DNA of 22,343 nt from a virus. The stretch lies in the UHGV virus genome UHGV-0208881. One strand, given 5' to 3'. This document shows positions 14,778 to 20,779 of the stretch, piece after piece. A model generated the notes under the pieces. That model searched no databases. It was not told the DNA's origin and was given only the letters and a program-made list of their open reading frames with translations. Position 1 is the first letter of the stretch. Each line of letters starts with the position of its first letter. The translations under genes were made by a program, and so were the position numbers.

Positions 14778-16277
14778 TTAAGTTCTCCGTGCGATGGGCC
14801 TGATTGGGGCTGGTATCTTTTTCTCTTTTGGTTTTTTGATGTCACGCATCATTTTTGCGAAGCGGCGCATCATGTATGCATAGCGAACGGCTGAGAGAAC
14901 GTCGTCGTTAAGCTTGACGATTTTCCCGTTTTCATCACGGTGATAGAGGCGGAACTCCTCAAAGAATGGCTCACAGGTGTTGAATACTTTGAAGCGACCA
15001 TCAAGCATCATGTCGCGCAATTCAGTGATGCCTGGCTCAACAGCGTTACCGCCATCAGGCCATGTCGCATGCTCCTGCAACATCATAAAACCAGCGTCTG
15101 CATACTGCCCTTTGAGCTGCTCACCGCCGCCCTTCTCATGCTGGTTTCCGTCATGAGGCCATGCGGTTGGCACTTTATGCGCCCATGATTTAACAGCTCC
15201 CCACGCCTGAACGGCTGTCTTTTCTTTCGCCTTCCACACGCGTGAAACGTAGATTGTGTCTGCGTCCTTATCCCACCAAAGCTGAACCTGCGCCTGAGGG
15301 TGATCCCATCCGAAATCCATCCCGCCAATTACGTAGAAGTGATCAGGGCACTCAAACGGCTGACACTTAATCGTCTCTTCCGGTATCTGGAAGATTCGAC
15401 CGCTACCCATCGTAGGAATACCGCGAGCACGCGCCTCTCTCTCATGCTCGGGATAGGATGCGATGATTTGCTCTTTCTGCTCGTCGGTGTAGTGCTCAGC
15501 GTCATAGATGGTCATGTTGACCACTTTCTGCGACTTGCTGGGATTCTTCAGGAACTTGGTAACAACGTCAGACATCCCCATCAGCGGGGTAAACGTCAGA
15601 ATTGAGAATTGCCCGTATTTGTTGGTACGGGTAAGCCCTTCGCCATAAATGCTGTATGGTGGTTCTTCGTCAAACCACACGCCATGGATTGTGTCACCCT
15701 GCCAGCGAGCGCGGCCTTGCGAGTATGGCTTGAAGTAGCAGATTGAAATGCCATCTTCAACGCCATCAGCCGTGTGATGCTTAACCAGAAGATGATCAAC
15801 AAGGTTCGGAAAGAAAGGAGACTTCTTCCAGCTAATGATGTCTTCTTTCGGTATGGAACCGTAGCCAGGCTCATCATTCTCTTCAATACGACCGCACAGG
15901 ATGCGTTGAGTCGTTTTGGTTACCGTCTCGTTTGTCTCGCCACCAATCCAGAAGACAACAGGCTCATAGAAACGCTTACCTTTCCACTCCCCGCCATATT
16001 TACCATCAGCAGGATAGCCTTTTGTGCCCGGATAACGCCCGGTAAGGTGAAACGCGACTTCAGCAGCACCAGTAAATGACTTGCCAAGCTGGTTACCAGC
16101 CATAAAACATCGCTCTGGATAGTCATGCCCGGCGTCGATGAACTCACGCTGTTTGCTGTATGGCGTAAATTCATATAGCAGGTGTGTGTTCCGGTAGTTC
16201 TCTTCTTCTTCGAGTAGTTCGAGCAATTCGATTTGCTCTTCGTCGCTCAGGTTATCAAGAATCGCGTCCAGTTCCAC
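14778..16277 (-). CDS. Terminase large subunit, P22 gp2-like (headful packaging ATPase/nuclease)
   Basis: 499-aa ORF (same length as P22 gp2). N-terminus [37 protein letters not shown] matches remembered gp2; Walker A-like GNQLGKS. Confidence 0.9.
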
Positions 16278-16749
16278 GGTTGAATAGCTCCTTGATACGA
16301 GAGCGCCGTTTATCGCGATCTCCCTTATCAGGTGTCACGTCTTCAACTTGCGACTGCTCTTTGAGGCCCAAATCACGGGCGATGATGTTAGCGTTGAGAA
16401 GGTCAGCGGCTGCGCCAGAGAATTTCTGGTCGTAGATGACCTGTTCTGCTCGCGTAACGACTTCAGATAAATCTTCTCGCAGGCGATATGTGCGCCATGT
16501 TTCAAGTGTCACATCAATGAACAGAGTGAGGCCTGTAATAGTCATCGCTCGCATCTTGGCGATAGGCTCTTGTATCACTTCACCCTGATACGAGAACGCC
16601 TTCATCTCCCATAGCGGGTTAGCTTCTACCCACTCGAAGTATTCACAACAAGCAGCCCACAGCGCCTCAGGCGATTCGAATTTAGGATTTCGCCCATGAC
16701 TACTGCGGGCCTCCCAAAATCGGTTGCCCTTTGGTGCTGCCATATTCAT
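16255..16749 (-). CDS. Terminase small subunit, P22 gp3-like; true start possibly at the third codon (16743), giving 162 aa
   Basis: ORF begins [24 protein letters not shown]; remembered P22 gp3 begins [10 protein letters not shown] and is 162 aa. 3' end overlaps the large-terminase start by 23 nt. Contains the pac sequence. Confidence 0.85.
16449..16476 (-). other. pac site (headful packaging recognition sequence) inside the small-terminase gene
   Basis: Minus strand reads GAAGATTTATCTGAAGTCGTTACGCGAG, matching the P22 pac sequence as I remember it, in the codons for EDLSEVVTR. Consistent with P22-type terminase and absence of lambda cos/Nu1/A. Confidence 0.6.
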
Positions 16750-16766
16750 CTCACTTAATCGTTATT

Positions 16767-16946
16767 TCAGGTTAAGGACTCTTTCGCGCCTTCAATCAGT
16801 TGCTGCTTCAGCAATTCGAGTGTGCCAATCGCCTCGCATAAACTGATTTCACCATCGTAATCATGGATGACGCTTTCCAGCCTCTCGTATAGCTCTTGAG
16901 TAATTGGGAATTTCTTCTCCTTACCCAAATTGATTACGCGGCTCAC
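16767..16946 (-). CDS. Possible small ORF (59 aa, GTG start) between the 80-aa ORF and the small-terminase gene; not in the ORF track
   Basis: Hand translation of the minus strand: GTG at 16946 preceded by GGAG about 6 nt upstream, 1 nt after the TGA of the upstream ORF; product VSRVINLGKEKKFPITQELYERLESVIHDYDGEISLCEAIGTLELLKQQLIEGAKESLT, stop TGA at 16767-16769. Fills an otherwise empty 198-bp gap. Confidence 0.3.
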   Translation of the reverse strand: MSRVINLGKEKKFPITQELYERLESVIHDYDGEISLCEAIGTLELLKQQLIEGAKESLT

Positions 16947-16947
16947 A

Positions 16948-17190
16948 TCATGCTCCGGTGGTGAACAGGTCTAACGCTTCCTTCGATTTACGCACCGCTT
17001 CAAATGTGCGGATCGTGATATCTGAATTAGCGCCACCTGACTGGAAGTGAATTTTGAATAGCTCAAGCTTCAGTTCGTCAGTGCCAATGAACTGAAATGC
17101 TTCCTCTGCGGCTGCGTTCTGGTTCATGACCAGCTTGTAAATCTCTAACTGGAATTTCTGTTCTTCAGTCATGGGAATAATCTCTGCCAT
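16948..17190 (-). CDS. Hypothetical small protein (80 aa), function unknown
   Basis: ORF with GGAGCC SD about 6 nt upstream of ATG; acidic, helical-looking sequence; co-oriented with the late operon. Confidence 0.55.
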   Translation of the reverse strand: MAEIIPMTEEQKFQLEIYKLVMNQNAAAEEAFQFIGTDELKLELFKIHFQSGGANSDITIRTFEAVRKSKEALDLFTTGA

Positions 17191-17215
17191 TGTTGGCTCC
17201 GTTTATCCGTTAAAA

Positions 17216-17237
17216 GGGATATCAGTTAAGTTATCCC
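17216..17237 (-). terminator. Weak candidate hairpin (GGGATA-N10-TATCCC) followed by TTTT on the minus strand, about 25 nt upstream of the 80-aa ORF start
   Basis: Perfect 6-bp inverted repeat read from sequence; only four T follow on the minus strand, so terminator function is uncertain. Confidence 0.25.
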
Positions 17238-17523
17238 GTGTAGGGTATAAGCCATTATCAAAGCCACTCTGTAGGGAATGGCTTTTGTGATGGCATCACT
17301 TACTCTTTACGCTGCTATCCCACTCATCCCGGAATTTTGATGGGTTATTGAAACCTTCTGCTGACATAACAACTCCTTCAATGTTTGGCTGAAATTAGGA
17401 TGTCTTTCCATCAGTCCGCCACCACAAAGAATCTTTTTTGCCATAAGGCAGGAGGTTCATCTTTCAGTGGCTGCCAGTGTTATTTCCCCACTTACTGGCT
17501 TGGGTTGTTTCGCTGTACTGCCG

Positions 17524-18066
17524 TTAATTAGTGAGTCCGGGGATTATGGTTTGCCCGTGCTGTTCAAGGCGTTCAATTCTCGCCAGTAGCTGAGGCTTCT
17601 TAATTTTTCCCCAGCGATTAAGCAGTCGACCTGACATGCTGGCAACATCCTTCTCTTTCATGTACTCCAGCATTACGGCATTTCTCTCTTCTTCAAATTG
17701 ACGATGACCAACCTGAAGCATGGCGTACATCCAGTTAAATGCGTTGATGTAAGCAATTTTGATACGCATTGCTTCTTTTTTGGTGTAGGACATAACCAAA
17801 AGCATCAACCCATCCTTGCGGAGACGGTAGAATTTTTGCGGCTTACCATTCTGTAACTCATTGTTTTTATAGCAAAGCTCAAAGTTGAGCTTTGTATCAA
17901 ACTCAGGAGGGCAAGCTTCTATGGTTCGTTCAATGTCACGAACTACGTTCTTCGGCAGCTTTCCAAATGCTTTTGCCACCATAAAAGAATCTGTAACCGG
18001 ATCGTTGTTTGCCACAAAAATCAGATCTCGGAAATCAATGCCGTTAACGATAGTTGGATAATGCAT
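17524..18066 (-). CDS. rha: Rha-family phage regulatory protein (antirepressor-like)
   Basis: 180-aa ORF. Motifs VTDSFMVAKAFGK...NVVRDIE and KDGLMLLVMSYTKKEAMRIKIAYINAFNWM fit the phage pRha domain consensus as I remember it. Sits between Rz and terminase, as P22 Rha does. Confidence 0.8.
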   Translation of the reverse strand: MHYPTIVNGIDFRDLIFVANNDPVTDSFMVAKAFGKLPKNVVRDIERTIEACPPEFDTKLNFELCYKNNELQNGKPQKFYRLRKDGLMLLVMSYTKKEAMRIKIAYINAFNWMYAMLQVGHRQFEEERNAVMLEYMKEKDVASMSGRLLNRWGKIKKPQLLARIERLEQHGQTIIPGLTN

Positions 18067-18210
18067 CAGTGATCACCTTTTAGTGATGAACCTTGTCACA
18101 CAGGATTCCGGCCCACAGAAAGGCACCGATCACCAAACCGGCATCCTCAAGGGTCATCCTGAAAGGTTCTGTGTTCATAAGTCGCGCGTGTGAAGCGCGT
18201 TTACTGCGGA

Positions 18211-18238
18211 CATAAAAAAGCCCCGCATCGCGAGGCTC
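18211..18238 (-). terminator. Intrinsic terminator downstream of the lysis cassette
   Basis: Minus strand reads AGCCTCGCGATGCGGGGCT (8-bp stem including one G-U pair, 3-nt loop) followed by TTTTTTAT, about 30 nt after the Rz stop. Confidence 0.55.
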
Positions 18239-18269
18239 ATTAAATTGACTTTGTGATTTGCAAAAAAAT

Positions 18270-18707
18270 TTATTTCAGGCACTGAGTCCTGATGTACTCC
18301 TGTAGGTAGTTAACCTGCGCGGTTATCCTGTCGATTCCACTTCGGAGACGGTAATAATTGAGTTCAGCATCTGCTGTAAGTCTTGGGCTTTCTCCATCGC
18401 CCATGCCGCTGGCTCCGGTCGTTGACTTTGCACAGGTGGCGGCGACTTGCAGGCGCTTACGCCCAGCAGAAACATCAGCACGGAGACTTTCGATAGTCGC
18501 GTTAGCATCAGCAAGCTCCTTTGTGTATCTGGCGTCGAGTTCTGCTACGTCACGTTGACGCTCCTGCATGTCAGCGATTATGGATGTGGCTTTATCGCGC
18601 TGCTCTTTGTAGGTCATGGCGTTATCACGGTAATGATTAACAGCCCATGACAGACAGACGATGATGCAGATAACCAGAGCGGAGATAATCGCGGTTACTC
18701 TGCTCAT
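18270..18707 (-). CDS. Rz: Rz-type inner-membrane spanin (i-spanin), 145 aa
   Basis: N-terminus [30 protein letters not shown] (TM segment) as in lambda Rz / P22 gp15; start overlaps the R stop (ATGA). Beyond about residue 35 it differs from lambda Rz as I remember it, and the 145-aa length equals P22 gp15. Confidence 0.85.
18323..18514 (-). CDS. Rz1: Rz1-type outer-membrane lipoprotein spanin (o-spanin), embedded in the +1 frame of Rz
   Basis: 63-aa ORF wholly inside Rz in a different frame; signal peptide [22 protein letters not shown] with lipobox ending in Cys, then a Pro-rich mature region ([13 protein letters not shown]). Confidence 0.75.
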
Positions 18708-20155: not shown

Positions 20156-20779
20156 CTAACGTGTGACCGCATTCAAAATGTTGTCTGCGATTGACTCTTC
20201 TTTGTGGCATTGCACCACCAGAGCGTCATACAGCGGCTTAACAGTGCGTGACCAAGTGGGTTGGGTAAGGTTTGGGATTAACATCGTCACAGCGCGATAT
20301 GCTGCGCTTGCTGGCATCCTTGAATAGCCGACGCCTTTGCATCTTCCGCACTCTTTCTCGACAACTCTCCCCAACTGCTCTGTTTTGGCTATATCAACCG
20401 CACGGCCTGTACCGTGGCAATCTCTGCATCTTGCGCCCGGCGTCGCGGCACTACGGCAATAATCCGCATAAGCGAATGTTGCGAGCACTTGCAGTACCTT
20501 TGCCTTAGTATTTCCTTCGAGCTTTGCCACACCACGGTATTTCCCCGATACCTTGTGTGCAAATTGCATCAGATAGTTGATAGCCTTTTGTTTGTCGTTC
20601 TGGCTGAGTTCATGCTTACCGCAGAATGCAGCCATTCCGAATCCGGCTTGTGATTGTGCCATCCCCATAGCAGCCATCACATCAGTACCGGAAAGAGAGT
20701 CAGAAGCCGTGGCCCGTGGTGAGTCGCTCATCATCGGGCTTTTTGGCGAATGAAATTTAGCTACGCTTTCGAGTCTCAT
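20156..20779 (-). CDS. Q: Late-gene antiterminator Q (lambda type)
   Basis: 207-aa ORF MRLESVAKFHSPKSPMMSDSPRATASD...CRDCHGTGRAVD...CGRCKGVGYS...; essentially identical to lambda Q as I remember it, including the zinc-binding Cys cluster. Confidence 0.95.
   Translation of the reverse strand: MRLESVAKFHSPKSPMMSDSPRATASDSLSGTDVMAAMGMAQSQAGFGMAAFCGKHELSQNDKQKAINYLMQFAHKVSGKYRGVAKLEGNTKAKVLQVLATFAYADYCRSAATPGARCRDCHGTGRAVDIAKTEQLGRVVEKECGRCKGVGYSRMPASAAYRAVTMLIPNLTQPTWSRTVKPLYDALVVQCHKEESIADNILNAVTR

Follow-up and report, generated by a model that had tools for sequence, protein, structure and literature searches.

Do accessory genes of undescribed function lie between the lysis cassette and the terminase gene in virus genome UHGV-0208881? 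An earlier note on this DNA, called here the window (the whole analyzed stretch of 22,343 nt), had read the interval as an accessory cluster in which a Rha-family gene stands beside an 80-aa ORF (orf80) and a 59-aa ORF (orf59c), and had put forward the two small proteins as candidates for anti-defense, superinfection exclusion, or host takeover. We found that the segment is most probably (about 85%) an ordinary gene 15-to-gene 3 late-operon stretch of a P22-like (Lederbergvirus) phage or prophage, with two variable slots and one conserved pair of genes (Table 1). Its DNA is 94-98% identical to that of P22, Sf101, CUS-3, PS34, and others, whose records carry orf80/orf59c/rha annotations, and the identity of the segment is secure because it comes from direct sequence identity to annotated records. 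The genes rha, orf80, and orf59c are annotated in P22, HK620, Sf6, Sf101, and E. coli prophages; orf80 is present in 170 phage records and orf59c in 45, and NCBI PGAP annotates E. coli prophages with the identical gene order. The three genes, their order, and the neighboring moron hot-spot were already documented in P22 and related phages. No tRNA genes were found within the window.

Table 1. Features of the lysis-to-terminase interval, in coordinates of the window
Feature	Position	Strand	Description
Small terminase subunit gene, P22 gp3 type	16255-16749	minus	GP3_package (Pfam) 114 bits; phrog_606 terminase small subunit
orf59c (= hkbN, Sf6 gene 68)	16767-16946	minus	59 aa, acidic; GTG start
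orf80 (= hkbM, Sf6 gene 67), DUF2560	16948-17190	minus	80 aa, acidic; four-helix model; conserved, heads the run into the packaging genes
Non-coding gap between rha and orf80	17191-17523		333 bp
Left flank of hot-spot	17191-17269		includes the orf80 ribosome-binding site
Imperfect hairpin, 19-nt arms	17251-17294		inverted repeat I1, 79% complementary; spans the left allele junction
Hot-spot allele of the window	17270-17398		129 bp; placed by pairwise BLAST junctions
Micro-ORF, 23 codons (MSAEGFNNPSKFRDEWDSSVKSK)	17296-17367	minus	inside the allele; AAGGAG 5 nt upstream; candidate gene only
Right flank of hot-spot	17399-17523		non-coding; downstream of the Rha-slot gene
Rha-family gene	17524-18066	minus	180 aa
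32-aa ORF, hydrophobic C-terminal half (MNTEPFRMTLEDAGLVIGAFLWAGILCDKVHH)	18080-18178	minus	between terminator and rha; coding status uncertain
Intrinsic terminator hairpin	18218-18238	minus	just 3' of Rz; GAGCCTCGCGATGCGGGGCTT then T-run; terminator scan: 9 pairs, 6 G-C

The P22 gene 15-to-gene 3 region (NC_002371.2 / BK000583), which contains rha (orf201), orf25, pid, orf80, and orf59c, agrees with the window in order and strand. Orf80 is 96% and Orf59c 98% identical between the two, orf59c begins with GTG 1 nt past orf80 in P22 also, a gp3-type small terminase gene comes next, and the hot-spot flanks are conserved. P22 differs in that its hot-spot holds a 631-bp pid cassette plus orf25 where the window has a 129-bp allele, and in that its Rha has 201 aa and another allele of the N-terminal domain. 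The closest annotated phage over rha/orf80/orf59c is Sf101 (96.5%), and the prophages of E. coli DLL7555 and MS 16-3 have the order of the window, annotated as Rha, DUF2560, hypothetical protein, and DNA-packaging protein. HK620 (hkbM/hkbN) and Sf6 (genes 66-68) are likewise among the closest known counterparts, and Sf6-like phages differ from the window in terminase type.

The two small proteins, which had been described as resembling nothing recognizable, belong to families annotated for decades. Searches of Pfam and PHROG assigned Orf80 to DUF2560 (PF10834; 143.3 bits versus a cut-off of 25, residues 5-76 of 80) and Orf59c to PHROG 3546 (phrog_3546) over its full length (positions 1-59 of 59, E 7.9e-42), and by tblastn Orf59c is 95-98% identical to HK620 hkbN and P22 orf59c. 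The GTG of orf59c is the annotated start in both of these phages, an allele starting with ATG aligns at the same position, and GGAG lies about 7 nt upstream. This start is 1 nt past the orf80 stop codon, a placement by which translation of orf59c could be coupled to that of orf80.

Both ORFs are short and one starts with GTG, as might be expected of chance, non-coding reading frames, but we found dN/dS of 0.10-0.18 for orf80 (65 unique sequences) and 0.21 for orf59c (56 unique sequences), with variable sites commonest at third codon positions in both, which effectively refutes that reading and leaves it next to no probability. Also against it, the frames are kept down to 40-60% identity and, in a profile search with Orf59c, in 163 protein clusters at E <=1e-3, and both genes have a Shine-Dalgarno sequence. 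Hence, orf80 and the GTG-start orf59c are real genes under purifying selection (dN/dS about 0.1-0.2), and the reading frames of both, checked in relatives, are conserved. All three ORFs of the earlier note, the GTG-start one included, were confirmed on the minus strand at the coordinates it gave.

Conservation also bears on whether the pair is accessory. Our set of related loci consisted of 80 IMG/VR P22-like loci, all carrying orf59c (which was the search seed); orf80 is present in 79 of them, and Orf59c is 88-97% identical across loci with differing neighbors. The lysis-terminase interval was correctly described as an accessory, variable region in lambdoid phages; however, by synteny comparison it is the Rha slot and the gap that vary, not the small ORFs. 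For orf80 and orf59c we found neither presence/absence polymorphism among collinear relatives, apart from the lack of orf59c in some lineages (CUS-3, ST64T), nor a promoter and terminator of their own, the two marks by which a moron is judged. The spacings are tight, at 1 nt between orf80 and orf59c and 17 nt between orf59c and the small terminase gene directly downstream, which is the downstream edge of the cluster.

No sigma-70-like promoter was found within 16700-18280 by a consensus scan, which weak promoters could escape. Since the genes show no promoter-like site of their own and have Q and the lysis genes upstream, their transcription most likely depends on Q-modified RNA polymerase, which would pass the post-Rz terminator late in infection and transcribe the packaging genes as well. 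In BTP1, a P22-like prophage, the late genes form one polycistronic operon (PMC7067206). On this evidence, orf80 and orf59c belong to the late operon as conserved, closely packed genes and are not variable accessory genes.

These results make it distinctly unlikely that Orf80 and Orf59c are moron-type accessory proteins with an undescribed anti-defense, superinfection-exclusion, or host-takeover role. Both are small and acidic (pI 4.7 for Orf80, 4.8 for Orf59c), a trait common to many phage inhibitor proteins, no functional mention of orf59c or DUF2560 was found in the literature searched, and the adjoining hot-spot does hold cargo such as pid. In addition, P22 orf80 is reported to be dispensable for both lytic growth and lysogeny (bioRxiv 10.1101/2023.08.15.553423), and accessory genes are often non-essential in the laboratory in this way. 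Against this role, the pair is conserved, not polymorphic (present in 79 of 80 loci at 88-100% identity), it lacks a promoter- or terminator-like site of its own and is closely spaced to the terminase gene, and late-operon timing would be too late for shielding incoming DNA. A search of PADLOC-DB v2 gave no match at E <=0.01 for Orf80 or Orf59c, nor for Rha or the 32-aa ORF. Work on BTP1 lysogeny picked out bstA, pid, and gtrAC as accessory or regulatory loci and picked out neither orf80 nor orf59c (PMC7067206), which argues against prophage-mediated exclusion. Hence, nothing supports the functions proposed earlier for the pair.

Neither of the two proteins has a significant sequence match among solved structures. 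The AlphaFold2 model of Orf80 (pLDDT 77) consists of four helices, and Orf80 would be a dispensable helical protein. The model of the Orf59c monomer (pLDDT 73) has the elements E2-6, E12-16, H17-28, and H36-57, that is, the beta-alpha-alpha topology of ribbon-helix-helix proteins plus an extra strand, E2-6. Like Arc/Mnt, CopG, ParD, TacA, and the TraM N-terminal domain, it is predicted to form a strand followed by two helices, and by comparison with the Arc/Mnt pattern Orf59c has 'hydrophobic-Pro' before helix A and 'G-x-x-S' before helix B. Unlike the ribbon-helix-helix proteins, the Orf59c model has the additional N-terminal strand, an invariant glycine in the middle of helix B, and acidic charge. 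Foldseek against the PDB gave no significant match for the model, hhalign of the family against Arc and CopG gave a probability of <=3%, hmmsearch against PDB sequences returned no ribbon-helix-helix match, and 0 of 36 family members had a Pfam ribbon-helix-helix match. The net charge of Orf59c is -4, and acidity extends through the family (pI 4-5.7 in 34 of 36 members), which weighs against classical operator binding; an acidic protein is unusual in that role. The model weakly suggests a ribbon-helix-helix assignment: Orf59c would most likely form a small ribbon-helix-helix-like dimer whose partner during packaging would be DNA or a protein, and it would not be tied to a single small-terminase type.

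A more specific proposal makes Orf59c an accessory factor for packaging, in which a small dimer would bind DNA or terminase and aid pac recognition or terminase assembly. We consider this rather doubtful. Its appeal lies in gene context. In P22-like phages and in a Cellvibrionaceae metagenome-assembled genome (L095), the gene that follows orf59c is that of the small terminase; in L100, orf59c precedes the large terminase and a P22-type portal; and in nine further distant loci it stands between the large terminase and MuF/portal. The family is much broader than its annotation implies. For this wider context, a scan of genome contigs yielded 1 locus and metagenome scans yielded 0 and then 10 loci, half of which lie on contigs <2 kb and were left out of the analysis. 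Of the distant loci, 11 of about 20 are beside terminase, MuF, or portal genes, a sample biased because it was seeded from packaging-context loci; about 9 of 20 are outside packaging modules, in contexts including Dam plus integrase, PhoH, and an early region, which counts against the proposal. So does the finding that small-terminase genes of three unrelated types follow identical Orf59c alleles, from which it follows that Orf59c does not co-vary with small-terminase type. The CUS-3 and ST64T lineages package DNA without orf59c, and the acidity of Orf59c is a further point against. To our knowledge, classical P22 genetics found only genes 3 and 2 to be needed for pac recognition and cleavage.

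The pair could also be pictured as a toxin-antitoxin-like module with Orf59c as a ribbon-helix-helix antitoxin, and the two genes are indeed adjacent and closely spaced. However, CUS-3 keeps orf80 without orf59c, about half of the related loci have a 95-aa ORF separating the two, distant Orf59c relatives (L009-L013) have no Orf80 partner, P22 tolerates loss of orf80, and neither Pfam nor PADLOC searches found toxin or antitoxin domains. We rejected a type II pair on co-occurrence, and a module of this kind is highly improbable.

Unlike the conserved pair, the Rha slot varies. The claim of a Rha-family gene held, as its scores exceed the curated cut-offs for Phage_pRha (Pfam PF09669; 77.0 bits versus 29.9), ORF11CD3 (Pfam; 89 bits versus 25), and TIGR02681 (NCBIfam; 84.8 versus 45.95), and it matches phrog_518 (E 2e-80). 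The Phage_pRha DNA-binding domain is N-terminal and the ORF11CD3 domain C-terminal. The founding rha genes are those of P22 and phi80. BLASTP against P22 Rha aligned 172 aa at 56% identity (E 3e-64), whereas identity reaches about 96% in the last 52 residues; the Rha of the window is a mosaic homologue of P22 Rha. Among the 80 loci, the slot contains variants of 98%, 48%, or 34% identity or no detectable Rha-like gene, and KilA-N or GIY-YIG genes fill it in HK544, Emek, L014, and g341c. Its net charge is +7 and its pI 9.4. Rha would be a DNA-binding regulator, named for the toxicity that the phi80 and P22 genes are reported to show in IHF-defective hosts, where phage growth is inhibited (Henthorn & Friedman 1995, in the account given in PMC8951638).

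The upstream edge of the cluster is the post-Rz terminator, and a rho-independent terminator is annotated at the equivalent position in HK544 and Emek. The cluster had been described as flanked by hairpins; this is right for the Rz side, where the terminator stands, and wrong for the terminase end, where no notable hairpin was found. The 32-aa ORF downstream of the terminator matches phrog_16173 (E 2e-23, profile positions 23-54 of 63) and is found in 7 of the 80 related loci; no obvious Shine-Dalgarno sequence was seen for it. The ORF and Sf6 gp65 are unrelated.

The remaining variable part is the gap between rha and orf80. The site of pid in P22, which lies between the same flanks, is a published moron hot-spot (PMC3573128), and the gap is this pid moron hot-spot and the real moron site of the interval, here without a recognizable cargo gene. 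The right flank occurs in 74 of the 80 loci at a mean identity of 98.6%, regardless of the upstream gene, and also in P22, Sf101, Huey, Sf6, CUS-3, g341c, ST64T, and the HK97-like phage HK544; the left flank occurs in 75 loci (mean 96.8%). HK544 is 99.3% identical to the window across 17109-17524, a stretch that takes in the first 27 codons of orf80. Between the flanks, inserts range from 23 to 1322 bp. Of the 73 loci having both flanks, 41 have the 23-bp 'empty' state, as do Sf101 and DLL7555, and 2 have the rare 129-bp allele, which is also carried by HK544 and Emek. In its position, P22 has the pid cassette, and Sf6, Huey, and MS 16-3 have a Phage_gp49_66 gene. Among 5426 complete E. coli genomes, 129 carry the allele, nearly always at >=99% identity and without annotation.

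The pid cassette lies wholly within the P22-specific insert (positions 726-1356 of locus L001, with the transcription start, P22 nt 40880, at 845). No counterpart of the pid locus (ORF, promoter, long 5' UTR, and terminator) was found in the window, where only the flanks match. Intact copies of the candidate micro-ORF of the 129-bp allele occur in HK544, Emek, L015, and L083; because these are 96-100% identical, their conservation carries little weight. The small ORFs that have been annotated at this gap in relatives (P22 orf25, Sf101 gp64, Emek orf53, and Huey CDS0065) were considered and rejected; they are probably not genes because they are unrelated to each other or cross a recombination junction.

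The earlier note had also remarked on structure in this gap, and imperfect hairpins are present, one at 17203-17250 and another across the left allele junction (Table 1), the latter forming in the minimum-free-energy fold of each strand. Folding of the gap is only modestly above that of shuffled controls (z -2.2 for the minus and -3.1 for the plus strand). An RNA element was rejected as an explanation, as Rfam gave no match at gathering thresholds and only the sub-threshold chance matches asX2 and mir-458.

The comparison with lambda clarifies what kind of site this is. The lambda bor gene is a moron between Rz and cos/Nu1, with its own promoter and expressed from the prophage. By the lambda map, the interval in the window is of the same position class, from lysis cassette to terminase in a lambdoid phage. 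Unlike the bor slot, the cluster of the window has no bor homologue or lipoprotein, and its genes are in late-operon orientation without a promoter-like site.

Few conserved late-operon genes of P22 lack an assigned function, and orf80 and orf59c are two of them; orf59c is not known to have been deleted singly. The discovery value of the locus is small; its residual value lies in the broader orf59c family together with the weak structural lead. The interval resolves cleanly into three parts: the conserved genes, a regulator slot that varies, and a cargo hot-spot defined by its flanks. Hence, mining of P22-like prophages for cargo should search between these flanks and not at orf80/orf59c.

Read on the minus strand, the window is a P22-like (Lederbergvirus-type) late region, from a phage or a prophage, in which Q, holin, endolysin and Rz/Rz1 are followed by the cluster, the small terminase, the large terminase, the portal and the morphogenesis genes. 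The Rha-family gene, the gap, the 80-aa ORF and the 59-aa GTG-start ORF were each found where the earlier note had placed them. The GTG of the 59-aa ORF lies 1 nt past the stop of the 80-aa ORF, with GGAG ~7 nt upstream, and 17 nt separate its stop from the ATG of the small terminase.

Features of the late region around the cluster
Feature	Coordinates	Strand	Family
Q	20156-20779	-	
Rz/Rz1	18270-18707	-	
Rha-family gene, 180 aa	17524-18066	-	Pfam Phage_pRha + ORF11CD3, TIGR02681
Gap, 333 bp	17191-17523		
orf80, 80 aa	16948-17190	-	DUF2560
orf59c, 59 aa, GTG start	16767-16946	-	phrog_3546
Small terminase	16255-16749	-	Pfam GP3_package

The two small ORFs had been taken for unrecognisable proteins, and this view was not upheld, since they are already annotated as orf80 and orf59c in P22 (beside rha), as hkbM and hkbN in HK620 and CUS-3, and as genes 67 and 68 in Sf6. 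By megablast, P22, Sf101, CUS-3, PS34 and many other phage records match the cluster at 94-98%. The DUF2560 match scores 143 bits (cut-off 25), and the three Rha matches are all over their cut-offs. In E. coli prophages, PGAP gives the order Rha family transcriptional regulator, DUF2560 family protein, hypothetical protein and DNA-packaging protein. Hence, as the records of P22 and its relatives and PGAP annotate the same ORFs in the same order, the 'hand-found' GTG ORF is P22 orf59c.

Selection was measured by comparing, for each ORF, its distinct nucleotide versions among related loci in IMG/VR. We found dN/dS of 0.21 for Orf59c (56 versions; 17, 6 and 29 variable sites at codon positions 1, 2 and 3) and 0.10-0.18 for Orf80 (65 versions; 49, 32 and 62 sites). 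Both frames are kept in relatives down to ~60% identity in a collection of 5.8 billion proteins, and the Orf59c frame also persisted in 163 clusters when 1.84 billion representatives were searched with a profile. These sequence comparisons show that orf80 and orf59c are real genes.

The proposal of an accessory interval held for the interval, whose Rha slot and hot-spot are variable, but not for the small ORFs, which are conserved and long annotated. Orf80 was found in 79 of 80 loci and opens the packaging block in every order observed: orf80-orf59c-TerS (small terminase) in P22, Sf6, HK620 and Sf101, orf80-TerS in CUS-3, and orf80-like, orf129, orf134 and gp3 in ST64T and g341c. Across the same 80 loci, what occupies the Rha slot is a variant of 98%, 48% or 34% identity or nothing detectable; KilA-N sits there in HK544, Emek and the related locus L014, and GIY-YIG in g341c. 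The Rha of the window is itself a mosaic, 56% identical to P22 Rha overall and ~96% in the C-terminal ORF11CD3 domain. Hence, the accessory parts are the Rha slot and the hot-spot, and orf80 and orf59c are not accessory.

The mosaic joint in rha divides 17524-17754 from 17755-18066; the ORF11CD3 part has ~88% DNA identity to P22 (~96% protein identity over the final 52 residues), and the N-terminal domain only ~40% identity. Between the post-Rz terminator and rha lies a 32-aa ORF (18080-18178, minus strand) whose C-terminal half is hydrophobic. It aligns with positions 23-54 of 63 in phrog_16173 (E 2e-23), lacks any obvious Shine-Dalgarno sequence and occurs in just 7 of 80 related loci; Sf6 gene 65 has a similar position but is unrelated. 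A second small insertion site lies between orf80 and orf59c, where about half of the IMG/VR loci (L014-L093) have an extra 95-aa ORF. The one example searched (L014, 3704-3991; MTEQEMPRYQCHKK...) had no Pfam, NCBIfam or PADLOC match. In loci with this ORF, orf59c starts with ATG (MTSVVDLG...) versus GTG (MSRVINLG...) otherwise.

Pairwise BLAST of the gap revealed conserved flanks (17191-17269 and 17399-17523) bracketing a variable middle (17270-17398); what lies between these flanks in P22 is a 631-bp segment. The promoter, long 5' UTR and terminator of pid have been mapped in P22 (PMC8835761). Because the P22-specific insert includes the transcription start of pid (P22 nt 40880), the window is without pid. 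The flanks are present in 74-75 of 80 IMG/VR P22-like loci at 97-99% identity. Among the 73 loci with both, 41 show a 23-bp 'empty' state, 2 carry the 129-bp allele of the window, and the remainder have inserts of 33-1322 bp. The 129-bp allele also occurs in Emek, in 129 of 5426 complete E. coli genomes and, unannotated, in the HK97-like siphovirus HK544 (99.3% identity across 17109-17524). A Phage_gp49_66 (PF13876) protein is recurrent cargo (Sf6, Huey and E. coli MS 16-3). Predicted structure in the gap is modest (z -2.2 and -3.1), and Rfam recognised no RNA family there.

Wholly inside the 129-bp allele is a 23-codon ORF (MSAEGFNNPSKFRDEWDSSVKSK; 17296-17367, minus strand) with a consensus AAGGAG Shine-Dalgarno 5 nt upstream; it is intact in HK544, Emek and two related loci (L015 and L083), copies too alike for a coding test. 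A plus-strand GTG-start 40-aa ORF (17467-17589) runs antisense to the rha 3' end in the right flank, which is highly conserved; it has AGGAGG ~11 nt upstream and a terminator-like hairpin on the same strand just upstream (17434-17455), and it may be due to chance. The Huey record (L003, 382-762 and 997-1497) labels both its cargo gene and its Rha-slot gene 'anti-CRISPR protein', which looks like automated over-annotation; Sf6 gp66, to which the cargo gene is almost identical, matches PF13876 (N4 Gp49 / Sf6 gene 66 family). HK97-like siphoviruses (HK97, HK022, HK75 and mEp234 records; HK544, L004, 745-1160) contain, as an unannotated segment between the KilA-N/lysis region and the HNH-terminase genes, the hot-spot flanks together with the opening 27-28 codons of orf80 (amino-acid identity 93-96%); podovirus and siphovirus lineages appear to share a recombination joint here, within orf80.

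We found no sigma-70-like promoter site inside the cluster, whose genes are tightly spaced in the orientation of Q and the lysis and terminase genes. A good intrinsic terminator follows Rz (18218-18238), and HK544 and Emek annotate one at the matching position. The simplest reading would be late, Q-antiterminated transcription of the cluster. The late genes of BTP1, a P22-like prophage, make up a single polycistronic operon, and bstA, pid and gtrAC were singled out as accessory/regulatory in lysogeny, with orf80 and orf59c unnamed among them (PMC7067206).

P22 with an orf25-orf80 deletion is viable (PMC11016777), and the literature searched yielded no discussion of orf59c or DUF2560. Anti-defence or host takeover had been suggested for the small ORFs; nothing points there, and PADLOC matched no cluster protein. 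A ribbon-helix-helix fold for Orf59c found no match by Foldseek against the PDB or by profile and sequence comparisons, and the family is acidic throughout (pI 4-5.7 in 34 of 36 members); hence, this putative fold is regarded as a lead and not yet as a result.

Packaging modules host 11 of ~20 distinct distant Orf59c loci, a sample that is biased, as packaging-context sequences supplied the search patterns. Nine are flanked by the large terminase on one side and MuF-like and portal genes on the other; of the remaining two, one precedes a gp3-type small terminase in a Cellvibrionaceae MAG and the other a Terminase_3 large terminase and P22-type portal. The loci outside packaging modules neighbour Dam and integrase or PhoH, or lie in an early region or in unassigned contexts. 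In P22-like phages, small terminases of three unrelated types have identical Orf59c alleles ahead of them, which speaks against a partner-specific contact of Orf59c with the small terminase.

In uncultured phages (L009, 3506-4165; L010, L011, L098-L102 and L113), an Orf59c-like gene and two other conserved small genes, in an order that varies by locus, separate the large terminase from the MuF-like gene. One companion is ~60 aa ('...HIVVVLPDG...' in the L009 copy) and the other ~105 aa, with a HESVHG (HExxH-like) motif in the L009 and L011 copies; neither L009 companion had a Pfam match.

The observation in the earlier note is confirmed, and its interpretation is partly supported. The cluster is already known, and the role of orf80 and orf59c is a genuine but old question. 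What the analysis contributes is a broader family for orf59c, one weak lead on its fold and a precise map that divides the interval into conserved genes, a slot for a variable regulator and a cargo hot-spot defined by its flanks.
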